Shown: in pieces, positions 1-13,602 of the stretch
Position numbering within the stretch: the first letter of the stretch is position 1
Layout of the letters: every line of letters begins with the position of its first letter
Assembly: GCF_035285525.1 (NCBI RefSeq)
Contig: NZ_JAYKGW010000131.1
Coordinates: 1 to 13,602, forward strand
Length of the DNA: 13,602 nt
DNA from: Okeania sp.
GTDB lineage: Bacteria; Cyanobacteriota; Cyanobacteriia; Cyanobacteriales; Microcoleaceae
Direction of reading: 5' to 3'
Notes under the pieces: generated by a model
What the model was told of the DNA's origin: nothing
Database searches by the model: none
The model's input: only the letters and a program-made list of their open reading frames with translations
Position numbers and translations under genes: made by a program

Positions 1-258
1 CTTTTTCCCAAGAAAGAAGTCTAAACCAAAACTGTAACGTTATAGTTTTTGAGAATTTACCAATAAAGATTTACTCAACCAAATTTGAGAATAATCTTTT
101 CATCTTTTTCCCAAGAAAGAAGTCCGAACCAAAACTGTAACGTTATAGTTTTTGAGAATTTACCAATAAAGATTTACTCAACCAAATTTGAGAATAATCT
201 TTTCATCTTTTTCCCAAGAAAGAAGTCCGAACCAAAACTGTAACCTTATAGTTTTTGA
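1..258. repeat. Tandem direct repeat, 103-bp unit x 2.5 copies (1-103, 104-206, 207-258), truncated by the window edge
   Basis: Direct comparison of the copies. Copy 1 vs copy 2 differ only at gtctaaacc vs gtccgaacc. Copy 3 has gtaacc instead of gtaacg and diverges after gtttttga at 259. The whole unit is repeated, not a repeat-plus-unique-spacer pattern. Confidence 0.95.
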
Positions 259-274
259 ATGATATAAAATCCCC

Positions 275-1822
275 CTATTCATTTACTCCTACTTTAATCA
301 GACACTGTGGATTTTCAACTTGCTTTCTAGGACGTTGAGTACGCAACAAACCAATATTGCTAGTCAATATAAAACTAGCAAAACTAGCGATCGCTATAAT
401 CGGAATTATTGATGTATCAGATAAAACACTCAAAATAATCGAGGTACTAATCGGAGTTTTAGTAATTGCTACATTAATAGCAGCCATGCAACATAACATC
501 GCAATAGTTGGATGTACCCCTGGAATACCTAAACTAATAGCTAACCCTAAACTTGCTCCCGTAAAAAATAGGGGAAAGATAAAACCACCTCTAAATCCAC
601 CATGAATAGTTAAAGTAATAGCTATCATTTTAGCCAAACAAATTCCCAGTAACATCATAACCGTAAATGTAGCAGCTGGTTCAATTAACTGAGTTTCAAT
701 TTGTTGCTCACTAAAAAAAAGAGTTTGGGGATATAAAACAGCCAACCAACCAATACCAAATCCTCCCAAAATTCCTCGCAAAATATGCCTATTTTCAATA
801 GGTTCAATGGCAAACTGTATAAGTCGAAAAATTCCAATAAACAAAATTCCAGCTAAAGCACCAACTATTCCTAAAATTCCAGCTTCCAAAAGACTTAACC
901 AACTCAAAGCAGGAATAGCATCAAAATAGTCAAAGCGATAGATACCGCCAATTTCTAACCCAGTGCCAAAGCGAAACACGCCAAAACTAAAAATTCCGGC
1001 CACAACCGCTGGAATAATTGCTTCGTAATACTGAATCCCCCGACGATGGGGAATCTCCAGAGCAAACAATGGGCCTCCTACAGGATCCCCAAAAAATGCT
1101 GCTAATGCTGCCCCCATACCACAAAATGTCAAAATTCGCGTTTCTTTTAGACTTAAATTAAGTTTATCAGCAATCCAACTTCCAAAACTGCCATTAATTT
1201 GTACCAAAGGTGCTTCAGGTCCTAAACTGCCACCAGCAGTAATTGATACTAAAGAAGTAGCAATCATTCCTGGAGTTTGATTTGGTTCCAAGCGACCAGG
1301 ATCGTGAATTTTATCAATTACTTTTGCCATTTCTCCTGGTTGACCAAAGAAATGGAGACATAAACCAACACCAAGTCCGCCAATTGTTGATATTATCCAA
1401 GTATAGTTCCATGCTGGTAGCCAGTCTGGAAAAATTCCTGTGAAGTAGTGCTTCCCTATTTCCCATACCAACTCCAAAAAGTTTTCTAAGACAAAGTAGT
1501 AAACTGTAGCAACTAATCCTCCTATAATACCAACAGCACTGGTATAAAGTAGAACTTTTGAGTATAATAGCTCATGGGTTTGACTGCTCAGTTCTAGTTC
1601 GTTGTCTTGAAAATTTTGGTTGTCCATACTAAAGAAAGGATTTTGAATTTCCTTTTGAATCAAAATGTTACGAATGAGACCAAATACCAATACAAAAAAG
1701 CCTATCAAGAAGATAGAAACAAAAATACCCATTGTAGTCACAAAAATGATTACTTGTTTCCTGCTACTCAAAGATTTGTAGCTATACTTGTTATAGTTGA
1801 TGGGAGGTATTACCCTCCGCAC
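275..1822 (-). CDS. ClC-family voltage-gated chloride channel / H+-anion antiporter homologue (no CBS domains)
   Basis: 515-codon ORF, highly hydrophobic throughout. ClC hallmarks: GSLGPEAPLVQ (gating-Glu motif, cf. GREGP), GMGAALAAFFGDPVGGPLFALE, and GGFIFP (GxFxP). The start is uncertain: the GTG at 1822 lies inside the predicted intron domain VI, and the first ATG is at 1732. Confidence 0.9.
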   Translation of the reverse strand: MRRVIPPINYNKYSYKSLSSRKQVIIFVTTMGIFVSIFLIGFFVLVFGLIRNILIQKEIQNPFFSMDNQNFQDNELELSSQTHELLYSKVLLYTSAVGIIGGLVATVYYFVLENFLELVWEIGKHYFTGIFPDWLPAWNYTWIISTIGGLGVGLCLHFFGQPGEMAKVIDKIHDPGRLEPNQTPGMIATSLVSITAGGSLGPEAPLVQINGSFGSWIADKLNLSLKETRILTFCGMGAALAAFFGDPVGGPLFALEIPHRRGIQYYEAIIPAVVAGIFSFGVFRFGTGLEIGGIYRFDYFDAIPALSWLSLLEAGILGIVGALAGILFIGIFRLIQFAIEPIENRHILRGILGGFGIGWLAVLYPQTLFFSEQQIETQLIEPAATFTVMMLLGICLAKMIAITLTIHGGFRGGFIFPLFFTGASLGLAISLGIPGVHPTIAMLCCMAAINVAITKTPISTSIILSVLSDTSIIPIIAIASFASFILTSNIGLLRTQRPRKQVENPQCLIKVGVNE

Positions 1823-1828
1823 CTCTAC
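1793..1828 (-). ncRNA. Group II intron domain VI-like hairpin with candidate branch-point A
   Basis: Minus strand reads GUAG-A-GGUG-C-GGAGG-GUAAUA-CCUCC-CAUC-AA-CUAU. This gives three stacked helices with an unpaired AA on the 3' strand, 7-8 nt from the proposed 3' splice site. Confidence 0.6.
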
Positions 1829-1832
1829 TTCA

Positions 1833-1867
1833 GAATCGGACGTGCGACTTTCACCGCATCACGGCTC
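1833..1867 (-). ncRNA. Group II intron domain V
   Basis: Minus strand reads GAGCCGUGAUGCGGU-GAAA-GUCGCACGUCCGAUUC. It has the AGC triad at nt 2-4, a 5-bp upper helix capped by a GAAA tetraloop, the 2-nt AC bulge on the 3' strand, and a lower helix with one C*A mismatch and one extra U. Confidence 0.8.
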
Positions 1868-3245
1868 CTAGCAGTCTGTGGTAACATCTCAGTTATAGAC
1901 AAAATCCGTTGATTAGGACTAAACCGGGTCAAGGTTTAGTTGTTCCTCATCTTCCACGGTCTCAGTCAGCGAGTGCCTTTGGCCTACTGCCTTGGGGTTA
2001 CTTACCTATGTGTCGTCTTGCGCTCGACTTTCGCCTGGGCAATTTTAGGCTAAAGGTTTTTACCCTGCACCCATAGACTTAGGAAACTTCACTCTAAGGT
2101 GTCTAAGCATCATCACCCTTCCTTTGAGGTTTCTTGACTGCCGGGGATAATTTCGTTCCCCCATCCTACCCGATAGCAAGATTTCCGAGCTTTCCTCCTA
2201 CTGACCAACTAACCTGCTTTGGTCAAACTTGCTTATCGTTTTTCCTCGTTCCGAATTACAGATTGTTTTGACGGTTTAGGGCTATCCCATTAATTCGCCT
2301 ACACAATCCCCAGGGATGCGTCTAACTATCAAATTTGACGCGGGGATGCTCGTGTGTTGTCAGGACACTTTTGGAGTGACTCCTTGCCAGGAAGTAAGAC
2401 ACTTTTTCAGGACATTCCGCCCCGGTACCCATGCCGTCTCCCCATCACCCCCAGTGTGCCTATCACCCTTAGCTCTGGTTGAGACCTGATACCAGCTTCA
2501 CTCTGCTAGTGGAAAAGGTCTAGCTCGGTGGGCCAGGTCGGGAGTCCGTTGTCCCCTAACGGGCTGGATTTTCACCAGCATCCGTAACTCAGTTATCACT
2601 ACAAGGCTCTTCTTTGGTGGCCTCGCGTTGGCAGGCTCTTCCTCCATGGCCTTGTTAGACCCTATTCATACCGCTCTAGTTGCTAGAGGCTCCTAATAGA
2701 AACGAGTCGCACTTGACATCTTCCTGAAACAGGTCTTGAGATTCTGTTCAGAATAAGCAAACTTTTCTATGGAACTATGAAATGGTCTATTGTAATAATT
2801 TAGAATTTAGAATTGAAGCAACTATTCAGGTGGAGGGGTTGACAAATAATCATATTTATGTTTTTACTACTTTCCATAAACCTTTTAGTCTGATTTATAG
2901 ATTCTTTAGTATCCTTAGATATAGTTTTTGGTTTTGAAACACTGACTATGCACAAAATCAAGAATAATGCAATCCCAATATCTGAATACTTACGGTCTAT
3001 TTAACAACAAAAGATAAATTAGACATTTCCAGAAATAATAAATCAAATCAATTATCGTACAGAAATTATCAATTTTTTCTTCCTATCTATTGCCTATTCC
3101 CGATATTTAGGGTTTGTTGATTAAAGATAAAAGTCTTTATGTATAAAAGTAAGTGCCTTTTCTAGTTGTGAAATAGTACCATATCTTCCCCTTATAAGGC
3201 CAAAAAAGTGTAGGTCATCTACAACTCCTTATTCCTCTAGACTCT

Positions 3246-3269
3246 GTAGGGACGTTGCATAGTCCCTAC
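3246..3269 (-). terminator. Perfect 8-bp hairpin (GTAGGGAC N8 GTCCCTAC) downstream of the gltA stop; possible terminator built from STRR-like sequence
   Basis: The stem was read directly and lies about 55 nt past the gltA stop. No U-run follows on either strand, so terminator function is doubtful. Confidence 0.3.
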
Positions 3270-3323
3270 CTACTCCCTACAAAGATCAAAAAGACTTCCC
3301 ATAAACAAACCCTATCTAAATAT

Positions 3324-4466
3324 TTAACGTTTTTCAGCAGGAGTATAATCAACATTATGAGATCCTGTATAAATTTGTGTAGGACGGAAAATACGATTAA
3401 CTGCCAATTGTTCTTTCCAGTGAGCTAACCAACCAGCTACACGAGCAATAGCAAATATAGGTGTAAATAAATCGCTAGAAATACCTAATTTGCGATAAAC
3501 TAGACCAGAATAAAAATCTACATTTGGATAAATTCCTTTGTGCCCTAGTCTTTCCTCTACAACCTTTTCTATCTCTAAAGCTATCTCATAATATTTGTCG
3601 TATCCAAACTTTTCAAATAACTCTACTGCTAATGCCTGAAGAATAACTGCTCTTGGGTCTTTAACCTTATAGACTCGGTGACCAAAACCCATAATTTTTG
3701 CCTTAGTCTCAAAACATTTTTCTAGATATGGTCTAACATTTTCTACCGAACCTATTTCAGATAACATACTGATTACATCTTCATTTGCTCCTCCATGCAA
3801 TGGACCTGCCAAAGTTCCTACTGCTGAAGCTATAACACCGTAGGGATCAGTCAAAGTAGAAGATGTTACCATTGCTGAAAATGTAGAAGCATTAATAGTA
3901 TGTTCAGCATGGAGAGTCAGACAAATATCAAATACTTTTGCTGCTAATGGATCCGGTTCCTTTTCATTAATCATATACAAAAAGTTAGCTGCATAATCCA
4001 AATCATCTCTTGGTTTAACAGGATCGTCACCTTTACGCATTAACTCAAAGGCAGCTACCATCGTCGGTATATTAGCAAGTAGCCTGACCACTGCTGTCCT
4101 AATATATTCGGGATTATCAAGGGCACGACGAGAATAAAATAAACCCAGAGCTGCTGCTGAAGTCTGTAGAGCATCCATAGGGTGTCCAGTTTCTGGGAAA
4201 CATTTCATCATGTCCCTAATTCTATATTTAATTCTTCTATTATCGCGAATCTCTTGCTCAAAGCTTTCTAATTCTTTTTTGCTAGGAAGGTTGCCCCAAA
4301 TTAATAAATATGCTGTTTCGAGAAAAGAACTTTCTTTGGCTAATTTTTCTATATTAATGCCTCGGTATTCCAATATCCCTTGTTGTCCATCGACGTAGCT
4401 GACACTTGATTGGGTAGCGGGAACACCTTCTAAACCAGGCTTGTATTCGATGCAGACGACGGACAT
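3324..4466 (-). CDS. gltA: Citrate synthase
   Basis: 380-aa ORF with the citrate synthase signature GFGHRVYKVKDPR, plus GPLHGGANE and LTLHAEH active-site contexts. An AAGGAG Shine-Dalgarno lies upstream of the ATG. Confidence 0.95.
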   Translation of the reverse strand: MSVVCIEYKPGLEGVPATQSSVSYVDGQQGILEYRGINIEKLAKESSFLETAYLLIWGNLPSKKELESFEQEIRDNRRIKYRIRDMMKCFPETGHPMDALQTSAAALGLFYSRRALDNPEYIRTAVVRLLANIPTMVAAFELMRKGDDPVKPRDDLDYAANFLYMINEKEPDPLAAKVFDICLTLHAEHTINASTFSAMVTSSTLTDPYGVIASAVGTLAGPLHGGANEDVISMLSEIGSVENVRPYLEKCFETKAKIMGFGHRVYKVKDPRAVILQALAVELFEKFGYDKYYEIALEIEKVVEERLGHKGIYPNVDFYSGLVYRKLGISSDLFTPIFAIARVAGWLAHWKEQLAVNRIFRPTQIYTGSHNVDYTPAEKR

Positions 4467-4470
4467 GACG

Positions 4471-4476
4471 CTCCTT
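4471..4476 (-). promoter_or_regulatory. Shine-Dalgarno (AAGGAG) for gltA
   Basis: Minus strand reads aAAGGAGcgtcATG, a 4-nt spacer to the start codon at 4466. Confidence 0.5.
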
Positions 4477-4566
4477 TTGAGTTAAAAATGTGAATATATC
4501 TAAAAATATATTATTAAGTATTTTTGTTATGTTATTTTTTTTACAAAAATCAATTAATAATTATGA

Positions 4567-5067
4567 TTAATCCAGTATAAATCTTGGTGGTGTTAACCAA
4601 AACATTTGACTATTGCCTACTGGTGAACCAACTTCTGGTAAGGAAATACCTATTACGCCTGCTTTTTTGAGTATTAATACTTCTCTGGTTTCTCCCCAAA
4701 TTAGAATTTCTGCCCAATTTGCTAAGTCTGGTTGATGGCCTACTAGAGCTAATTCTCTATTTTTTTGAGGTGGCCATGTTTCTAGCCATTGTAGCCAAAG
4801 ATTAATATCTCCATCAGGGGCCAGGGGTGAAAATTCTTCTACTTTGGGACTTAATTTATGAGCTTGCAGAATTTTAGCTGTTTGATTAGCTCTAACTAAG
4901 GGACTGGTAAGAATTAGGTGGAAATGAAGACCTAGTTGGTTTAATTTTTGAGCAATTTTGTGGGTTTTGCGATCGCCTATTTCTGTTAAAGGACGTTCTG
5001 CATCTGTAGGACAATCTTCTCTACCAGCGGCAATACCGTGACGAATAAAATAAATATTTGTAGTCAT
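4567..5067 (-). CDS. sixA: Phosphohistidine phosphatase, SixA type (histidine phosphatase superfamily)
   Basis: 166 aa. RHG motif at the N-terminus (IYFIRHGIA), SPLVRANQTA and LVGHQPDL. Size and motif order are typical of SixA. Confidence 0.8.
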   Translation of the reverse strand: MTTNIYFIRHGIAAGREDCPTDAERPLTEIGDRKTHKIAQKLNQLGLHFHLILTSPLVRANQTAKILQAHKLSPKVEEFSPLAPDGDINLWLQWLETWPPQKNRELALVGHQPDLANWAEILIWGETREVLILKKAGVIGISLPEVGSPVGNSQMFWLTPPRFILD

Positions 5068-5073
5068 ATTTTT

Positions 5074-5106
5074 AGGGAGTAGGAAGTAGGGAGTAGGGAG
5101 TAGGGA
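5074..5106. repeat. STRR-type heptamer array, GGGAGTA x about 4.5
   Basis: agggagtaggaagtagggagtagggagtaggga read directly. The same heptamer recurs at 6252-6277 and as its reverse complement at 3270-3280 and 5648-5657. Confidence 0.9.
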
Positions 5107-5620
5107 ATAATGGATAATTGATAATGAAGTAGTTAGATAAAGATCAAGAGACAGTTATTACTCTTACTTCTCTGTTTTCCCATCCTTGTCATACTTCTCG
5201 TCCTGCTCAAACTCTGCTTTTTTCAGGGAGTCTTAAGTAGGGTTTGCGCTCAAAAGTCTTATGGGTAAGGGTAGAAAACAGAAGGCAGAAGGAATGGGAA
5301 TTATAGAATAATAGGAATATCCTTATGCAATGTCCGTACAGAAGAATCGTCCCTTGATTTTCTTGCCCTATCTTGACCAAAATCCTAGATTGATTTTTCG
5401 GGAACCGTACCATTACCAGCTAAAAGCTGGTACTTTATTAGTACCTGAAAAGGCTCAAACCTTTACTTATCAAAACTTTGATATTTCCATACGCCAGCCC
5501 TAAGTGATTTTACCAGACTACTATCACTCTTTTTCCTTTCGCCTCATCTCCTTACTACACTGTTTCATCTTAATAGATGTAGGTTGGGTTTAGGGACGAA
5601 ACAAGGGCAACAATCTTTCT

Positions 5621-5657
5621 CCCCCAGTCCCCCAGTCCCCCAGTCCCCTACTCCCTA
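5621..5657. repeat. STRR-type heptamer array, CCCCAGT x 3, followed by CCCCTACTCCCTA
   Basis: cccccagtcccccagtcccccagtcccctactcccta read directly. CCCCAGT matches the STRR1 heptamer of heterocystous cyanobacteria as I recall it. Confidence 0.9.
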
Positions 5658-5664
5658 ATTCTGA

Positions 5665-5699
5665 TACAAAAAACCCTGCACTGAAATAGGCAGGGTTTT
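5665..5699 (-). terminator. Rho-independent terminator directly after the HNH gene stop (bidirectional shape)
   Basis: CCCTGC/GCAGGG stem, extendable by A-U pairs to about 10 bp, with a 10-nt loop. On the minus strand a run of 6 U follows; on the plus strand TTTTC follows. Confidence 0.7.
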
Positions 5700-6203
5700 C
5701 TACATACCAATCACATATTTTTGCCATTCTTTGTTTTTACCACTTTTAACGTATTTAGTCAATTCAAAATACAGGCTACTATGGGGTTTTCGAGGCCGAC
5801 AATGCAAAGCCATATTAGCCTCTTTTGGTGTACGACTTCCTTTGCGGACATTACAACTCACACAAGCAGTCACAAGATTTTCCCAGGTATCTGCACCACC
5901 ACGCGATCGCGGTATTACATGATCTATGGTCAAATTATCACCCGTATAATTACAGTATTGACAAGAATGACTATCTCTGTGCATAATATTTCGGCGTGTT
6001 AAAGGAATATCTTTATAAGGAACTCGGACATAGTAGCGCAGTCGGATGACTGTAGGTAGGGGAATATTAGGAAGGATATACACCCCTTTGTGTTCAATTT
6101 GCTCCGCTTTATCTTTGAGCAACAAGACGATCGCTCGTCGCCAACTCGTGATATTGAGCGGTTCATAAGAAGCGTTCAACACTAAAACATTGGCCATTGA
6201 CAT
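5700..6203 (-). CDS. Small stand-alone HNH endonuclease family protein
   Basis: 167 aa. C-terminal HNH/zinc-finger module: HSCQYCNYTG...IDHVIPRSRGGADTWENLVTACVSCNVRKG. The N-terminal 70 aa or so (VLVLNASYEPLNITSWRRAIVLL) have no assignable function. Confidence 0.85.
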   Translation of the reverse strand: MSMANVLVLNASYEPLNITSWRRAIVLLLKDKAEQIEHKGVYILPNIPLPTVIRLRYYVRVPYKDIPLTRRNIMHRDSHSCQYCNYTGDNLTIDHVIPRSRGGADTWENLVTACVSCNVRKGSRTPKEANMALHCRPRKPHSSLYFELTKYVKSGKNKEWQKYVIGM

Positions 6204-6251
6204 TTCTGAAAAGAGAATTTTTGATCACATATTAGCACAATTAATATATTT

Positions 6252-6277
6252 AGGGAGTAGGGAGTAGGGAGTAGGGA
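6252..6277. repeat. STRR-type heptamer array, GGGAGTA x about 3.5
   Basis: agggagtagggagtagggagtaggga read directly, in the divergent HNH/alr spacer. Confidence 0.9.
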
Positions 6278-6468
6278 TTAGAAGGAAACCTTAGAAGTTT
6301 CTTTAAGAAACCGGGTTTCTGGGTAGGTTGGGACATTTAATAAATGCTCAAACTTAGTCAAAGATTAATGCATAAATTTTTAATTTTTAATTTTGACTTG
6401 CGCCCTACAGCCTGAATTTTGCCAATTTATGGAGTAATTGTTTTAATGAATAAAAAATTTAACTGATT

Positions 6469-6474
6469 GAGGAG
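6469..6474 (+). promoter_or_regulatory. Shine-Dalgarno (GAGGAG) for alr
   Basis: ttGAGGAGtgacggaaaATG, a 9-nt spacer to the ATG at 6484. Confidence 0.5.
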
Positions 6475-6483
6475 TGACGGAAA

Positions 6484-7695
6484 ATGTTAAGTTGGGAAAA
6501 TGCTTTTTTGAAAACTCAAGCCACAGAAATTTTAAATCAGGGATCAATAGAAAGTGATATAGTTGGAGGTATTTGTCAAAGAGCATGGGTAGAAATTAAT
6601 GATCGGGCACTGACCTATAATGTCCGAGAACTTAAAAGTCTTTTATCAGCTAAAACGAAATTAATGGGAGTGGTAAAAGCAGATGCTTATGGACATGGAG
6701 CGTGTAAAGTATCTCAAAGTATTTTAGAAGCTGGTGCAGATTGGTTGGCAGTGGCAACAGTTCCAGAAGGAATAGAATTAAGATTAGCTGGAATAGAAGC
6801 ACCAATTTTAATTTTAGGGGCAACCGATCAACCTGAACAAATTCAAGCGATCGCTCACTGGGAACTACAACCAACTATTGGTACGCCTCAACAAGCTTTA
6901 GTTTTTTCGGAAACTCTTTCTTATTACACGGAAGCAATGCCAGTACATCTGAAGTTGGATACAGGAATGTCTCGCTTAGGAACATCTTGGCAACAGGCAG
7001 TAGAATTTGTAAAATTTGTACAGGGCTTGCCAAATTTAAAAATTGCGAGTATTTATTCCCATTTAGCTACAGCAGATGAATCAGACCAGACAGTGATGAG
7101 ACAACAGCATCAAAGATTTCAGGAAGCAATAGGTTTGTGTTGTATTGATGGCAAAGGTTTTCCTGGTGATATCCGACTTCATTTAGCTAACTCCGCAGCA
7201 ACTTTAACTGACTCTGCTTTACACTACGATATGGTGAGAGTGGGTTTAGCTATTTATGGTTTATATCCAGCACCTCATCTACAGGAGAAAATTAAGTTAA
7301 AACCAGCAATGGAAGTAAAAGCTAGGGTAACGCAAGTCAAAACTATTGAAGCAGGTACTGGGGTGAGTTATGGTTATAAGTTTATTGCTCCCAAACAGAT
7401 GCGGTTAGCAGTGGTGGGTATTGGTTATGCTGACGGTATACCTCGTAATCTTTCTAATAAGATGAAAGTTATTGTGCGCGATCGCCTAATTCGGCAAGTG
7501 GGAGCTATTACGATGGATCAGTTGATGCTGGATGTGAGTGATATTGCCGATCTAGAAACAGGTGAAGTAGTAACTTTATTAGGGCAAGTTGGGGAACATC
7601 GAATTTCTGCTGAAGACTGGGCAAATACTTTAGGAACTATTTCTTGGGAAATTCTTTGTGGTTTCAAGCATAGGTTGCCTCGTGTAGGAGTTTAG
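6484..7695 (+). CDS. alr: Alanine racemase (PLP-dependent)
   Basis: 403 aa. PLP-lysine motif VVKADAYGHGA near the N-terminus, a C-terminal beta-domain with GYADGIPR, and length and domain order typical of Alr. Confidence 0.92.
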   Translation: MLSWENAFLKTQATEILNQGSIESDIVGGICQRAWVEINDRALTYNVRELKSLLSAKTKLMGVVKADAYGHGACKVSQSILEAGADWLAVATVPEGIELRLAGIEAPILILGATDQPEQIQAIAHWELQPTIGTPQQALVFSETLSYYTEAMPVHLKLDTGMSRLGTSWQQAVEFVKFVQGLPNLKIASIYSHLATADESDQTVMRQQHQRFQEAIGLCCIDGKGFPGDIRLHLANSAATLTDSALHYDMVRVGLAIYGLYPAPHLQEKIKLKPAMEVKARVTQVKTIEAGTGVSYGYKFIAPKQMRLAVVGIGYADGIPRNLSNKMKVIVRDRLIRQVGAITMDQLMLDVSDIADLETGEVVTLLGQVGEHRISAEDWANTLGTISWEILCGFKHRLPRVGV

Positions 7696-7727
7696 AAATA
7701 CAGAGGATTCTAATTTGGTGAGGTACA

Positions 7728-7754
7728 CCAGTGCGGGCATTTTTCCCGCACTGG
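7728..7754. terminator. Perfect 10-bp GC-rich hairpin between the convergent alr and M28 peptidase genes (likely bidirectional terminator)
   Basis: CCAGTGCGGG-cattttt-CCCGCACTGG read directly. It sits in the 73-bp convergent spacer. There is no clear U-tract on either side. Confidence 0.6.
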
Positions 7755-7768
7755 GAACATTGAATTAT

Positions 7769-8698
7769 TTAAGATATAACCCCTACAAAATCTGCAATAA
7801 CTCTCTCTAAACCAACGACAACTCTGGTGAATCTATCAAAATCTATTTTGTCAATAGTATCTTCTGGTTGATGATAATAAGGATAGCGAAGAAAAGCAGT
7901 ATCTGTCACCATTAAAGCTGGATAATTTTGTTGCCAAAATGCCCAGTGGTCTGATAAATCTACTCCAGAAAATAATGCTGGAAGTGCCGCACCTTCTGAG
8001 GGAAATTTAGTATGGCGACGAAAAGAAGAAATAGCATCACATACTAATTTTCTATTCGCCATATTACTAACAAAAGTAATGTAATTTCCTGTAGAAGGAT
8101 AAAAATTATCAAGACCAGGAGGAAACTTTTGACTACCCAAATTATCGGAATAATAACCAATAGTTTCTAGACTGAACATGGCGAAAATATTTTCTTGGTT
8201 TTGTCGGCAATTTTTAGCATAGACAAAACTACCCATATTAAGAGTTCTAAAAAAAGGTGGTTCTTCATTAGCAAATTCTACAAAACGCAAAGTTCTTGAT
8301 GTTTTTTTCTCAGAAAATTTCCTGGCTAATTCTAATACTGCTACTGTGCCTGTACCATTATCATTAGCTCCTGGGCAATTAAAAACTGAGTCATAATGAC
8401 TCCCTACTACTACAATTTGTTCTGGTTGATAAGAGCCTTTGATTTCTACTTCTAAATTTTCAAATGTTTGATTATCAACTTGATAGGTTTGCCGTCGAAC
8501 TTGATAATTATATTTACTAAATTCACTAGCAATAAAATTAGCTGCATTTCTTAGTTGAGAATAATTTGAATAGTTTCGTTCGCCAATTTCAACAGCTAAT
8601 TTGTGTAAATTATATTCTAGTAAATATTTGAGATAAATTTCTGCTTCTGTTAGTGGTGGTAAAACACCGCGATAACTTTCTCCAGGCATTTTTAGCAT
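7769..8698 (-). CDS. M28-family zinc metallopeptidase (aminopeptidase-like)
   Basis: 309 aa. VVVGSHYDSV and PGANDNGTGTVAVLELAR match the M28 metal-ligand motifs. No obvious signal peptide. Confidence 0.85.
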   Translation of the reverse strand: MLKMPGESYRGVLPPLTEAEIYLKYLLEYNLHKLAVEIGERNYSNYSQLRNAANFIASEFSKYNYQVRRQTYQVDNQTFENLEVEIKGSYQPEQIVVVGSHYDSVFNCPGANDNGTGTVAVLELARKFSEKKTSRTLRFVEFANEEPPFFRTLNMGSFVYAKNCRQNQENIFAMFSLETIGYYSDNLGSQKFPPGLDNFYPSTGNYITFVSNMANRKLVCDAISSFRRHTKFPSEGAALPALFSGVDLSDHWAFWQQNYPALMVTDTAFLRYPYYHQPEDTIDKIDFDRFTRVVVGLERVIADFVGVIS

Positions 8699-8761
8699 AG
8701 AATTATCCTTTTTTTAGGGAAGAGGTATGGAGGTATGGAGAAAAGAGGTGGGAATTTCATT

Positions 8762-8894
8762 ATTAATTATTAGACATCTCCTCCAAATGAGGGAACAGGG
8801 AACACTAGATATGTGGGAACAGGAAGAAATAATTGATAATTTATGGATAAGAATTGATTTAATTTTTTATTTTTGGAGATGTCTATTAATTATT
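8762..8894. repeat. Long inverted repeat (arms 8762-8787 and 8871-8894) enclosing GGGAACA heptamers; MITE-like or large stem-loop
   Basis: The arms share TAGACATCTCC exactly plus flanking AATTA(T/A), about 20 of 22 positions once a 3-nt bulge is allowed. The interior carries gggaacagggaacac (8791-8805) and gggaacagg (8815-8823). The right arm ends 3 nt before the rnhA stop. Confidence 0.75.
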
Positions 8895-8897
8895 CAT

Positions 8898-9371
8898 TTA
8901 CTTATAACCATAATCTAAATCTAAATCTAGTTGTTGAGAAGCTTTTACTGCTAATTCATCACAACGCTCATTTTCTATATTTCCAGAATGACCCCTTACC
9001 CAAGAAAATTCAACTTGATGTTTATCGCATAAATCTAACAATTTTTCCCATAGATCAGGGTTCATTGCTTTATCTTTTTTATTCCGTTTCCAATCATTTG
9101 CTTGCCAACGTTTTGCCCAACCTTTTGTGGCAGCATCAACTATATATTTAGAGTCAGTATATAGGGTGACAATAGAGGTAAATTCTAGTTGTTCTAAACC
9201 TACTATTACTGCCATTAATTCCATACGATTATTAGTAGTTAGTTGATAACCTCCAGATAATTCTTGCCGTTGTTTTCCAGACAAAATAACAATACCATAA
9301 CCACCAGGGCCAGGATTTCCACTACAAGCACCATCAGTATAAATAGTAATTTCTGGTTGGTTTTCTATCAT
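8898..9371 (-). CDS. rnhA: Ribonuclease HI
   Basis: 157 aa. IYTDGACSGNPGPGGYG, NNRMEL, YTDSKY and WVRGHSGNIENERCDELA carry the complete DEDD catalytic set in canonical order. Confidence 0.95.
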   Translation of the reverse strand: MIENQPEITIYTDGACSGNPGPGGYGIVILSGKQRQELSGGYQLTTNNRMELMAVIVGLEQLEFTSIVTLYTDSKYIVDAATKGWAKRWQANDWKRNKKDKAMNPDLWEKLLDLCDKHQVEFSWVRGHSGNIENERCDELAVKASQQLDLDLDYGYK

Positions 9372-9457
9372 ATTAGCTCCTTTTTATTAAAGTAAATTTG
9401 CTCTATAAATAATAGAATGATATGGTGGTTAAGCACAGTAATAAGAGCTAGAGAAAA

Positions 9458-10177
9458 ATGAACAATCAATATACAGGGTTTACTGAGTATTATGATTTGT
9501 GGGTTACTTCTGGTTATTATAACTACCAGGATATTGCTAAGGAAACACATTCAGTTATCGGGAATGGTCGCCAGATTATTGAGTTAGGTGTAGGAACAGG
9601 GTTACTAGCACAAGAGTACATTAATATTGATCCAACCTGCGAGTTTACAGGAGTTGATTTTACCTCTTCCTTGCTGGAAATTGCTGAGAAACGCTTGGAA
9701 AATCGGGTTAAATTGATTGAAGCTGATGCTGTAACAATGGACTTAAATACAAAGTTTGATGTGGCCATATCCAATGGAGGAGTGTGGGGAATTCTTGATT
9801 TAGGTGATAAATGGGAATTTGGAGGCCATGTTGCAGGGATTGAAGCTAATAGTCAAGGTTTGAGAAATGTAGCTTACCACTTAAAAGAAGGAGGATTATT
9901 ATTATTACACCTGCAAAAACCACATCCAAACTATGAAAAATCTATAGGTGAGGGAATTATCTATTCTCAGTCTATTGAAGAAGTAGAAGATACGGTAGAT
10001 TATCATACTCTACTGAAGAGCTATTTATTCAAGAAAGAAGAAGAAATTGTGGTTCAAGAGCAAATTAAAATTACCTGTTTTAAACCAGAAATTTCTGAGA
10101 AATTGTTAAGTGAGGCGGGATTTGATTTCCAAGGTACTAGCAATGGCGATCGCTTTGCAATTTACAAAAAGCGATAA
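9458..10177 (+). CDS. Class I SAM-dependent methyltransferase
   Basis: 239 aa. Motif I IIELGVGTGLL, post-I GVDFT, FDVAISNGG, and an N-terminal YYDLW...YNYQDIAKE segment reminiscent of small-molecule methyltransferases. Confidence 0.8.
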   Translation: MNNQYTGFTEYYDLWVTSGYYNYQDIAKETHSVIGNGRQIIELGVGTGLLAQEYINIDPTCEFTGVDFTSSLLEIAEKRLENRVKLIEADAVTMDLNTKFDVAISNGGVWGILDLGDKWEFGGHVAGIEANSQGLRNVAYHLKEGGLLLLHLQKPHPNYEKSIGEGIIYSQSIEEVEDTVDYHTLLKSYLFKKEEEIVVQEQIKITCFKPEISEKLLSEAGFDFQGTSNGDRFAIYKKR

Positions 10178-10234
10178 TTAATTTCAATCCTGAAAGCTTT
10201 TTCTACGAAGTTTAGTAATACAAAAAGACTATCT

Positions 10235-10747
10235 ATGAGTATTTCCATTCAGCAGGTTAGTACCTCTGAGCAATTAAATTTATGTCACCAGATGCAAATA
10301 GCAATTTTTCATCACGAACTAAATTTGTTCGGAATGCAAATACCTGATGACTACGATCGCTCATCACTTTATATGCAAATTGTTGATTCCCAAGTTGTTG
10401 TGGGAACTTACCGCATTGTTCCTAATACCTCTCTCGGACTGCCAATACAAGAAACTGGATTTAATCTTGAGCAATTTGAGAAAAATAAGATATGTGAAAT
10501 GTCTCGTCTAGTTCTTCTGAAAGAAAAGCGGGGTAAAATCCCTTTTAGCCAAGTTTTCTCTTCCGCTCGTAATGCTGCCAAAGAGCATTACAATGCTTCT
10601 ACTCTAGTTGTGGCGATCCTGCCTCAAAATGTGTCTCTGTTTAAACGGTATGGTTTCTCACAGGTGGGGGAACCGCTGCACGATCCGACTGTTAAGTCTA
10701 CCGACAAGAATGAGTCAGTTATTATCCCAATGCAAACGTATATTTAA
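10235..10747 (+). CDS. GNAT-fold N-acyltransferase-like protein (Acetyltransf_5 / N-acyl amino acid synthase-like)
   Basis: 170 aa. The pattern ...FHHEL...DDYD...MQIVDSQVVVGTYRIV...CEMSRLVLLKEKRG...FKRYGF resembles the GNAT subfamily that includes N-acyl amino acid synthases and OlsB-like enzymes. Subfamily assignment is by eye only. Confidence 0.6.
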   Translation: MSISIQQVSTSEQLNLCHQMQIAIFHHELNLFGMQIPDDYDRSSLYMQIVDSQVVVGTYRIVPNTSLGLPIQETGFNLEQFEKNKICEMSRLVLLKEKRGKIPFSQVFSSARNAAKEHYNASTLVVAILPQNVSLFKRYGFSQVGEPLHDPTVKSTDKNESVIIPMQTYI

Positions 10748-10885
10748 TCAGAACTTACACAGACGCACCCAGAAACTTGGTTTATTGTAGACTTTTCGTC
10801 AAAAACAATGATTTGTAGCAGAAACTGGGTTTCGCGTAAGTAAGTTATAGTTACTCTTCTGTCTGAATTTATAATCATAAAACTG

Positions 10886-11923
10886 ATGAACTTAATCTCA
10901 CAAACTGAAGCTCGTAAAGCAGATCATTTACGCATTTGCTTAGAATCAAATGTCCAATTTAACCATACCACTAACGGGTTAGACCGTTACCGTTTTACCC
11001 ACTGCTGTTTACCAGAACTAAATCGCAGTGACATAGATATAACAACTACATTTCTGGGAAAGCAACTCGGTGTGCCATTATTAATATCTTCGATGACGGG
11101 TGGTACCGAACAAGCAAAAATGATTAATTATCGGTTAGCTCAGGTTGCTCAAAAGTATAAGATAGCTATGGGGGTTGGTTCGGAACGAGTTGCTGTAGAG
11201 AACCCCAAGGTAGCTGATTCTTTTGCTGTGCGATCGCTTGCTCCTGATATTCTGTTGTTTGCTAATTTAGGTGCTGTTCAACTCAATTATGATTATGGCA
11301 TTAATCAGTGCCAACAAGCGATTGATATTTTACAGGCAAATGCTTTGATTTTACATCTCAATCCTCTTCAAGAATGTATTCAAACTGAAGGTGATACTAA
11401 TTTCCGAGGTCTTCTTGACAAAATATCAAAATTGTGCTACTCATTGCCAGTACCAGTAATTGCGAAAGAAGTAGGTAATGGTATTTCTGGGAAAATGGCG
11501 CAAAAATTGATTGATGCTGGAGTCGCAGCGATTGATGTGGCGGGAGCTGGAGGGACTTCTTGGGCTAAAATTGAAGGTGAACGTGCTACAGATCCTATTC
11601 AGCGTAGGTTAGGAAATACTTTTGGTAATTGGGGTTTACCGACGGCAGAATGTATTACTTCGATTCGAGACTGGAACTCAGATGTTCCTTTGATTGCTTC
11701 TGGAGGTTTACGAAATGGGTTGGATGTGGCAAAGGCGATCGCTCTCGGTGCAGATTTAGGTGGATTAGCTTGGCCATTTCTCCAAGCAGCAGTGGAGTCG
11801 GAGGAATCTTTAAGTTTATTAGTTGATATTTTAATTGCGGAAATAAGGACGGTTCTATTTTGTACGGGTAATGCTAATTTAGCAGATTTAAAAAAATCTG
11901 GTACTTTGGAAAGATTAATATAA
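10886..11923 (+). CDS. fni: Type 2 (FMN-dependent) isopentenyl-diphosphate delta-isomerase
   Basis: 345 aa. [38 protein letters not shown] and [14 protein letters not shown] are the typical IDI-2 TIM-barrel motifs. Confidence 0.92.
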
Positions 11924-11940
11924 TTGTGAAAAAAACGGTA

Positions 11941-11971
11941 GGGGTTTGGTCTCCAAATCCTATTTTTCTTT
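11941..11971 (+). terminator. Rho-independent terminator after fni
   Basis: GGGGTTTGG-tct-CCAAATCCT stem (9 bp including 2 G-U pairs, 3-nt loop), followed by ATTTTTCTTT. Confidence 0.55.
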
Positions 11972-12041
11972 AGGTTTTGATAAATATAGCAATGTGCGCA
12001 CTTAATCTTCACAAATTACAGGAGCTGTCCAATAGCTAAAA

Positions 12042-12127
12042 GCGTTATATTATCGGCCATTCATTCTCCCTGTTCCCTCTCTTGCTTGATTGGATATGGC
12101 GTATCGGCTGTCGCCGACATATAACGC
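12042..12127. repeat. About 86-nt hairpin-forming element with 15-16-nt terminal inverted repeats (small dispersed repeat / MITE-like)
   Basis: GCGTTATATTATCGGC (12042-12057) against GCCGACATATAACGC (12113-12127), plus an inner CGGC-tgtc-GCCG hairpin. Confidence 0.7.
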
Positions 12128-12160
12128 GTAGCGTCCCGGAGGGAAAGGACACCTCGCCAT

Positions 12161-12216
12161 CCCTTAACCGCTGTTCCCTGTTCCCTTAACCGCTGTTCCC
12201 TGTTCCCTGTTCCCTG
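12161..12216. repeat. 22-nt direct repeat x 2 (cccttaaccgctgttccctgtt) running into a CCCTGTT heptamer (STRR-type) array
   Basis: 12161-12182 and 12183-12204 are identical, followed by ccctgttccctg. This is the reverse complement of the GGGAACA units at 8791-8823. Confidence 0.9.
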
Positions 12217-12249
12217 CGCTATAAATTAAACTTCTCATAATGAATTTTT

Positions 12250-12915
12250 ATGTTATTGCAAGCTAACCAACGGACAAAATTAGATGATTCTGACGATCGC
12301 TTATTTTATTCTTTTCCCAGGTTTGTCACCCATGTGGATGAAGGGTTTATCGATCGGTTGACTAATTTATATCGTGATCGCCTCCAACCTCAGACTAAAA
12401 TTTTAGATATGATGAGTAGTTGGGTTTCTCATTTACCAGAGGAAATGGAATTTAGTCATGTGGAAGGACATGGTATGAATGAGGAGGAGTTGGCAAAAAA
12501 TCGTCGATTAAATCATTATTTTGTGCAAAATTTTAATCAGGATTTAAAAATACCTTTACCGGACAAAGATTTTGATGCGGTGTTGAATTGTGCTTCAATT
12601 CAATATTTACAATATCCTGATGCTATATTTTATGAAATTTATCGTATTTTGAAACCTGGTGGAATGGCAATTATTAGTTTTTCTAACCGGATGTTTTATC
12701 AGAAGGCGATCGCTGCTTGGCGAGATAATTCGGAGGAGGAAAGAGTAAAGTTAGTAAAGAGTTATTTTGACTCTATAAAAAATGCTAATGGGGTTCCAGG
12801 TTTTAGTCAAGTAGAAGTAATTTCTCAAAAGTCAAATGTACCTAATTTTTTGCAGATGTTAGGTTTAGGAGCAGGGGATCCTTTTTATGCTGTAATTGCT
12901 TATCGTCAGATTTAA
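12250..12915 (+). CDS. Class I SAM-dependent methyltransferase (Methyltransf_11-like)
   Basis: 221 aa. KILDMMSSW (degenerate motif I), FDAVLNCASIQYL, and ILKPGGMAIISF. Confidence 0.75.
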   Translation: MLLQANQRTKLDDSDDRLFYSFPRFVTHVDEGFIDRLTNLYRDRLQPQTKILDMMSSWVSHLPEEMEFSHVEGHGMNEEELAKNRRLNHYFVQNFNQDLKIPLPDKDFDAVLNCASIQYLQYPDAIFYEIYRILKPGGMAIISFSNRMFYQKAIAAWRDNSEEERVKLVKSYFDSIKNANGVPGFSQVEVISQKSNVPNFLQMLGLGAGDPFYAVIAYRQI

Positions 12916-13006
12916 GATTAGGTGATAGTTTTAGGTAGTTGTTAGTAAGTTAAGATATATTTTTTGTGGTGGTTTATTGTAATTATTTTTGTTAACATAA
13001 AGGGTA

Positions 13007-13040
13007 GCGGGAGCATCTTACTCCCGTACTATTTTATTGA
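13007..13040 (+). terminator. Possible terminator after the second methyltransferase
   Basis: CGGGAG-catctta-CTCCCG hairpin followed by tactattttatt. The stem is short and the U-tract interrupted. Confidence 0.4.
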
Positions 13041-13142
13041 TTATTACTATGCAGAAATTCCGTTTTTTTTATCGACAAATATCAGTCTTTATTGCCAAAA
13101 AAATTAGGGTTCAAAACTATCCTTAGAAGGAGAGAAAAAATT

Positions 13143-13308
13143 TATAGGAAATTCCAAGTATAGCAATTCCCATACTTGTGAGGTAAAGTTTTCTATCCTC
13201 CCTTACCCCCCTTTGAAAGGGGGGAAAAGTGAGCAAAAAGTTCCCCGCATGATCGGGGAATTTAGGGGGGATTATAAATGTACCTTACAAGAAAAGGGAA
13301 ATCCTATA
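13143..13308. mobile_element. MITE-like structured element (about 166 bp) with imperfect terminal inverted repeats and internal C6/G6 hairpins
   Basis: Left end TATAGGAAATTCC...CTTGTGAGGTA, right end TACCTTACAAG...GGGAAATCCTATA. Internal hairpins are CCCCCC-tttgaaa-GGGGGG (13206-13224) and TTCCCCG-catgat-CGGGGAA (13241-13260), with a third G6 run at 13265-13270. No coding capacity. Confidence 0.55.
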
Positions 13309-13457
13309 TTATGAACCACAGATTTAATTATTAAATCTTTTAAGTGCGAGTCGGAAAACTCGCTTAGGTGTGCTTGATAAAAGTGGAATCCGCTGTATAT
13401 TCACTATTTTAATTCTTTAGTTTTAGTCAGAGTTACTGATAATTGAAATGCTACTAC

Positions 13458-13602
13458 CTAACTCCTATTTCGTAGAATTTTGTTTTTTCTTTCTAATATA
13501 ATTTCAAACTGAGAAATCATTTTTTTTAAATAAGGAGTATCATAACCATTAATATAGTAAAGATAAACTTCCTGTGGGTCATCGGGGTAATAGCGAAATG
13601 GT
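13458..13602 (-). CDS. 3' end of an unidentified ORF entering from beyond the window (partial)
   Basis: My own translation of the minus strand: PFRYYPDDPQEVYLYYINGYDTPYLKKMISQFEIILERKNKILRNRS*, stop at 13460..13458. That is 47 open codons in AT-rich DNA reaching the edge. No family recognised. Confidence 0.35.
   Translation of the reverse strand, partial: PFRYYPDDPQEVYLYYINGYDTPYLKKMISQFEIILERKNKILRNRS

Follow-up and report, generated by a model that had tools for sequence, protein, structure and literature searches.

An intron between the citrate synthase and ClC genes of Okeania

We analyzed a 13,602-nucleotide (nt) stretch of DNA from Okeania sp. (assembly GCF_035285525.1, contig NZ_JAYKGW010000131.1, positions 1 to 13,602), hereafter called the window, in which a group II intron without an open reading frame (ORF) lies upstream of a ClC (Voltage_CLC) gene. 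On the minus strand, a histidine phosphatase gene (4567..5067) and a citrate synthase gene (3324..4466) are followed by a 1.6-kb spacer and then by the ClC gene. The longest ClC ORF (275..1822, minus strand, 515 amino acids) runs from a GTG at 1822. Read from ATG 1732, the gene spans 275..1732 and encodes 485 amino acids, and from an alternative start at ATG 1627..1625 it encodes 450. The protein is full-length, matching Pfam family PF00654 (Voltage_CLC) over profile positions 1 to 344 of 346 (E = 1.4e-52), and its closest homologues come from Okeania, with 87% identity to an Okeania ClC. The spacer holds an intron of 923 nt (1790..2712, minus strand) with a G+C content of 50%, compared to 37% for the whole window. 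We are confident that this candidate IIB-type element was inserted in sense orientation into non-coding DNA and that the ClC coding sequence is intact in the 3' exon.

The intron extends exactly from 2712 to 1790 on the minus strand. It starts with GUGCG (2712..2708) and ends with CUAUAAC, the last two bases of which (1791..1790) are AC, and both ends fit the GUGYG and AY consensus. Its limits follow from three lines of evidence, namely, the ends shared with other copies, gapless empty sites, and the pairing between the exon-binding sites (EBS) of the intron and the intron-binding sites (IBS) of the 5' exon. A scan of species-representative genomes with a 28-nt domain V pattern returned 26 loci. 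In blastn comparisons with independent copies (L010, L006, L015, L021, and others), similarity extended exactly from GTGCGAC to CTMTAAC, while the flanks were unrelated; all copies of the family end in AAC or ACC. Two full-length relatives, likewise devoid of an ORF, align with the window copy along the whole intron, exact to the base at both ends: L010 from Okeania sp. SIO3B5 (916 nt, 89% identity) and L006 from Okeania sp. SIO2F4 (939 nt, 84% identity). The ORF-containing relatives L021 and L015 are about 2.2 kb each.

Empty sites were found in two Okeania loci (L001 and L004) in which the histidine phosphatase, citrate synthase, and ClC genes follow one another as in the window. At these sites, ...GGGAAGATGTCAA runs straight into the homologue of the 3' exon without any gap. 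The 5' exon of the window, ...CAGGAAGATGTCAA, and its 3' exon, AAGTATAGCTAC..., thus correspond to one continuous stretch at 5946|5947 of L001 and at 5463|5464 of L004. The splice sites originally predicted, 2713|2712 and 1790|1789, therefore proved exact by family ends, empty sites, and EBS1-IBS1 pairing alike. The site was empty in every relative examined, indicating that the insertion is recent and not conserved. A scan of metagenomes with the 16-mer target site TTCRGGAAGATGTCAA gave at least 120 matches; none of those listed resembled the locus by blastn, and they are attributed to chance, the pattern being too short.

Several elements of the ribozyme could be recognized. The Rfam model RF00029 (domain V/VI) matches 1869..1790 over its full length (1 to 77), with 40.4 bits against a gathering score of 40. 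Domain V (1833..1867, minus strand) forms a hairpin with the AGC triad and a GNRA loop, one helix pair being C.A, and is followed by domain VI (1790..1828, minus strand), in which a bulged A at 1797, 7 nt ahead of the 3' splice site, is the candidate branch point. The GTG at 1822 lies within domain VI. Reading the alignments by eye, we also made out the strands closing domain I (CUCGUU/AACGAG) and a hairpin for domain II; a short hairpin with compensatory changes occupies the position of domain III. The minimum-energy fold of the whole intron bore no resemblance to a group II structure, and no covariance model for domains I to IV gave a match. Introns in metagenome-assembled genomes (MAGs) of Actinomycetota and Mycobacterium (L008, L011, L012, L019, L028, L029, and L030) contain the 28-nt domain V pattern as well; the domain VI and flanks of these introns are unrelated to those of the cyanobacterial family.

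Pairing of the intron with its target

The last 6 nt of the 5' exon constitute IBS1 (UGUCAA, 2713..2718, minus strand), which overlaps the TG of ATG 2719..2717, and IBS2 (CAGGAAG, 2720..2726, minus strand) lies upstream of it. Within the intron, EBS1 (UUGAUA, 2327..2332, minus strand, intron positions 381 to 386) occupies the loop of the hairpin 2341..2318 and forms six pairs with IBS1, one of them G-U, while EBS2 (CUUCCUG, 2388..2394, minus strand, intron positions 319 to 325) forms seven Watson-Crick pairs out of seven with IBS2. The EBS2 loop is hypervariable between copies. Moreover, EBS1 and IBS1 covary in all five copies compared, the window copy being accompanied by L010 (UCUACU/AGUAGA), L006 (GCAUCU/AGAUGU), L021 (UAAAUU/AAUUUA), and L015 (CAAUAC/GUAUUG). 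Since the EBS loops have diversified between copies, each copy matches its own site. For EBS3, the base of the coordination loop that in class IIB would pair with the 3' exon at its first base, a candidate column at U2293 is compatible with the same five copies, with a G-U pair in L006, a count that depends on a single informative change. The site would thus have been recognized by RNA-DNA pairing, of EBS2 with CAGGAAG and of EBS1 with UGUCAA.

Two other candidates were dropped. UUGAC at about 2222 was considered as EBS1, but it is nearly invariant across copies with different exons, and its one U/C difference does not track IBS1. A IIA-type delta-delta' pairing beside EBS1 does not fit L010.

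The ClC reading frame upstream of the intron junction

The original prediction held that splicing may be needed to assemble the true N terminus of ClC. The observations on the ORF from which it started are accurate. The frame is open from ATG 1732 up to GTG 1822, codons 1 to 11 (1822..1790) fall within the RF00029 match, and codons 12 to 30 read KYSYKSLSSRKQVIIFVTT. In the ligated exons, the ClC frame stays open for exactly 18 more codons up to a TAG at 2769..2767, with no in-frame ATG and only a TTG at 2760..2758, and ATG 2719..2717 directly follows AGGAAG (2725..2720), 2 nt out of the ClC frame. If the intron did interrupt the coding sequence, the start codon would be TTG 2760 or, given a 2-nt shift of the 3' splice site, ATG 2719, and the N terminus would be built by splicing. 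We consider this very improbable. An open frame by itself is not strong evidence of coding, and mononucleotide shuffles remained open in 16% of cases for the 57-nt leader, in 10% for the leader plus domain VI, and in 4% for the 5' exon plus the leader. This last figure, which concerns an open frame of 18 + 19 codons across the ligated exons, speaks in favor of a split gene, as does the conservation in Okeania of ATG 2719 together with the preceding purine run.

The intron-free relatives nevertheless contradict it. In the two Okeania loci with empty sites and in the Trichodesmium-like L002, the ClC frame is closed 1 to 5 codons upstream of the ATG equivalent to 1732, and the homologous leader of 54 to 57 nt between the insertion point and that ATG carries 1-nt, frame-breaking indels, so that the exon-continuity test failed. 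The starts of the orthologues lie at or after the equivalent of ATG 1732 in Okeania sp. SIO3B5, Okeania hirsuta, and the Trichodesmium-like contig, an outcome that the original prediction had itself named as speaking against a split gene. The residues KYSYKSLSSRK, which had been taken for a genuine positively charged N terminus, have no similar counterpart in any homologue or orthologue. As for the conserved ATG, its mini-ORF is 4 codons long in the window and in L001 and 13 codons long in L004; the three products are unrelated, and none of them is in the ClC frame. AGGAAG is not a ribosome-binding site: it abuts this ATG without a spacer and belongs to IBS2, which pairs fully with EBS2. Finally, if the 3' splice site were moved 2 nt upstream to bring ATG 2719 into frame, an additional AC that the empty sites lack would remain, and the intron end would depart from the AAC or ACC of the family. 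Canonical splicing yields the empty site with no gap, which excludes the shifted one.

The 57 nt between the intron and ATG 1732 (1733..1789, minus strand) are therefore best read as a non-coding leader in the 3' exon, and the open frame extending into domain VI and across the ligated exons would be a chance feature of this one genome. From the insertion point, the distance is 57 nt to ATG 1732 and 162 nt to ATG 1627, both downstream. The fallback offered with the original prediction, an intron that had landed in the 5' leader or intergenic DNA, is supported by these findings, while the start at ATG 1732 that came with it is only one of two candidates on which relatives disagree. An insertion that leaves the coding sequence unsplit, as here, is typical of bacterial group II introns, most of which lie outside housekeeping genes (PMC4424553). 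Because bacterial ribosomes initiate internally on mRNA, the ClC protein sequence does not depend on splicing.

Alternative views of the insertion

Several observations weigh against the reading of an intron inserted in non-coding DNA upstream of ClC. The open frame of the ligated exons is mildly unusual, only 4% of the shuffles being as open. Promoter and terminator scans of the window spacer and both Okeania spacers found nothing above chance in the conserved block of the window and nothing in the Okeania spacers. No reverse transcriptase is encoded within the 13.6-kb window, a scale at which a helper elsewhere in the same genome would not be visible. Lastly, the window copy may splice poorly or not at all owing to the C.A mispair in domain V. 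The A at 1836 is unique to this copy and turns a C-G pair of the AGC-triad helix into C.A, which Rfam flags as a non-standard pair; the equivalent position is a G in all 26 other loci matching the domain V pattern. The predicted energy of the domain V hairpin accordingly rises from -15.2 kcal/mol for the family sequence to -8.2 kcal/mol, a loss of about 7 kcal/mol. A second unique G-to-A change, at 1798 in domain VI, affects a position that is a G in all family copies.

Both changes fall within the most conserved 80 nt of the element, and they raise the possibility that the intron is a decaying, splicing-impaired fossil and that ClC transcripts either retain it as a long unspliced leader or begin at a promoter within or downstream of it. 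The reduced stability of domain V points in the same direction, and genomic copies of the intron RmInt1 are known to be inactivated by single point mutations (PMC4496777). On the other hand, the remaining ribozyme is 84 to 89% identical to its relatives with its recognizable elements all intact, and each EBS still fits its IBS perfectly. Helices can also accommodate a C.A pair as a wobble. In addition, A1836 is possibly a sequencing or assembly error; more generally, the G-to-A changes at 1836 and 1798 could represent either real decay or such an error. Taken together, we find decay to a fossil unlikely, if clearly the more credible of the alternatives concerning the fate of the intron. Impaired splicing would in any case leave the ClC protein unaltered, because the coding sequence is not split.

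The intron could also have been co-opted as a regulator, with maturase-dependent splicing setting the amount of translatable ClC mRNA. What suggests this is position only, the intron sharing the strand of ClC and separating its start codon from a conserved upstream block. We found no conserved pairing of the intron with the start region, and the site is empty in every relative examined, so that we hold such a role to be quite improbable. A related scenario, in which a maturase-dependent leader intron with a weakened domain V gates ClC expression or in which unspliced RNA is translated from GTG 1822, adding 30 residues to the N terminus, appears to us slightly less probable still. We thus favor the insertion of an intron into non-coding DNA upstream of an intact ClC gene.

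The start codon of ClC

Judging from comparison with related proteins, ClC probably starts at ATG 1732 or at ATG 1627, and relatives disagree on this point; with either codon, the start lies in the 3' exon. A hydrophobic N-terminal extension of 27 to 36 open codons is common to the window, several Okeania strains, and one Trichodesmium MAG. If ATG 1627 (MDNQNF...) were the start, the 35-codon hydrophobic stretch would be an untranslated leader, and the intron would stand 162 nt upstream of the start. We consider this somewhat less likely than not. The motif YYF[VIL]LE lies 40 to 54 residues from the start in 89 of 98 orthologues, which matches the 1627 register. The extension is missing from Okeania sp. 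SIO3I5 and Dapis, whose proteins are annotated as starting MDNPNV / MRRSFPSMDNPNV and MDNQNV / MIEKKIPRLFPSMDNQNV, and the gene of Okeania SIO3B5 is given 445 amino acids from this ATG in GenBank but 481 in RefSeq. Furthermore, the ratio of nonsynonymous to synonymous substitution rates is 0.3 to 0.7 in the extension versus 0.07 to 0.26 over the 120 codons that follow, and the three codon positions have nearly equal shares of the substitutions.

Other features of the extension favor ATG 1732. Its frame has no stop in any of the four sequences compared, while the other frames have 1 to 5. Aligning the window with the two Okeania loci shows a single indel, of 3 nt, the Trichodesmium-like L002 being alignable only from its own later ATG. 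In addition, the hydrophobic helix followed by basic residues would fit an extra N-out/C-in helix. The Trichodesmium-like and Okeania SIO2G4 proteins have an isoleucine in place of the methionine of 1627 and must therefore start upstream.

The start of ClC varies within the Okeania/Trichodesmium/Dapis clade (window 1628..1732; L001 6001..6108), the extension being present or absent or the downstream methionine being lost. In two loci, the ClC orthologue is called as two overlapping ORFs, of 164 and 351 amino acids in L004 (Okeania hirsuta, 5519..7056) and of 110 and 357 amino acids in L003 (5681..7074), which suggests a frameshift, a pseudogene, or a sequencing error.

Origin of the intron and loss of its ORF

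The longest ORF inside the intron encodes 57 amino acids, and a tblastn search with the reverse transcriptase of the family found no match in the window, including the 290-nt domain IV insert. The first 551 nt and the last 82 nt of the window copy nevertheless align with the ORF-containing L021 and L015. L021 encodes an intact 503-amino-acid protein with RVT_N, RVT_1, and GIIM domains and a C-terminal Cys/His motif; among solved structures, its best match is 6ME0 chain C (E = 2e-66), which we take to be the T.el4h intron protein. The window copy thus appears to descend from introns with a reverse transcriptase/maturase of their own, one related to that of T.el4h. In its domain IV, ATGCTTAGACAC (2099..2110, minus strand) is the same 12-mer that opens the 503-amino-acid ORF of L021, and this remnant of the start of the ORF for the intron-encoded protein (IEP) is likely what is left of a maturase-binding site. 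It is followed by about 230 nt of domain IV sequence unrelated to the protein ORF.

Because it has no reverse transcriptase ORF, the window intron cannot move by itself. Its insertion, and its splicing if any, would presumably have been helped in trans by the reverse transcriptase/maturase of a full-length relative. ORF-less L006 and L021, with its intact ORF, do occur together in the genome of Okeania sp. SIO2F4, and ORF-less bacterial introns are nearly always accompanied in their genome by related copies, the protein of which may serve them in trans (PMC4424553). In Trichodesmium, many introns without a maturase splice (PMC4143802). The family to which the window intron belongs has spread among Okeania-like cyanobacteria.

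The ORF-less copy L010 (1540..2455, Okeania SIO3B5) lies inside an IS5-like transposase ORF (...STKIHGVV|DALGNP...), and L007 and L014 share its 3' flank. Since this type of copy is present on at least three contigs, the intron may also spread as a passenger of insertion sequences.

Other features of the window

Upstream of the target site, a 5' exon block (2727..2769, minus strand) is about 78% identical to Okeania and is possibly a promoter or leader; no conserved coding potential was found in it. A permissive Rfam scan of 1500..3400 for riboswitches or other RNA motifs matched domain V only. The citrate synthase-ClC spacer also contains a dispersed repeat of about 65 nt (3020..3084), which recurs at 8821..8885 of the window with about 84% identity and is found as well in L001 (about 3008..3069), L025 (7375..7437), and L005 (5705..5771). 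Further short dispersed repeats fill the spacer, and such repeats may explain why it is about 430 nt longer than that of Okeania SIO3B5, the intron not being counted.

Directly downstream of the ClC stop codon (275..277), a tandem repeat (1..258) of 2.5 copies of a 103-nt unit, with 98% identity, reaches the end of the contig. Short tandem heptamers or octamers occur between genes, with TAGGGAG repeated 4 to 5 times at 5073..5106 and 6251..6281, TCCCCCAG repeated 3.6 times at 5620..5648, and others at 12171..12216; similar short tandem repeats are known from filamentous cyanobacteria. Between the genes for histidine phosphatase and alanine racemase lies a stand-alone HNH endonuclease gene (5700..6203, minus strand). 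Its position is conserved in Okeania, and in L001 an IS605 OrfB-type gene has been inserted beside it.

Significance and comparison with known group II introns

For annotation, these results mean that the ORF from GTG 1822, which runs into the intron, should not be used and that the gene start is to be placed at ATG 1732 or 1627. The locus offers a clean pairing of an occupied target site with empty sites, and the EBS-IBS covariation in this small Okeania intron family could aid in cataloguing ORF-less group II introns that are missed by searches for reverse transcriptase genes. Apart from this, the intron is a further copy of a known type of element in an ordinary position and has no bearing on open questions in splicing or ClC biology.

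The window intron is most similar to the ORF-less members of the Thermosynechococcus elongatus and Trichodesmium erythraeum intron families, which depend on the maturase of a related copy and with which it shares a putative IIB-type ribozyme, GUGCG, EBS1 and EBS2, domains V and VI, the absence of an IEP, and close relatives with an intact reverse transcriptase/maturase in the same genera. It differs from them in that about 230 nt of its domain IV are unrelated to the protein ORF and in the mispair of its domain V. Unlike the verified Trichodesmium introns, 17 of which lie within 10 host genes (PMC4143802), it is located in a non-coding leader. Like Ll.LtrB and RmInt1, which are typical mobile group II introns, it shows EBS-IBS targeting, insertion outside essential coding sequence, and copies in other mobile DNA (L010), but unlike these, it lacks a reverse transcriptase ORF. 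Finally, it resembles the organellar and cyanobacterial group II introns that split housekeeping genes in its sense orientation at the 5' end of a conserved gene. However, in contrast to those introns, it leaves the coding sequence, here that of ClC, unsplit.

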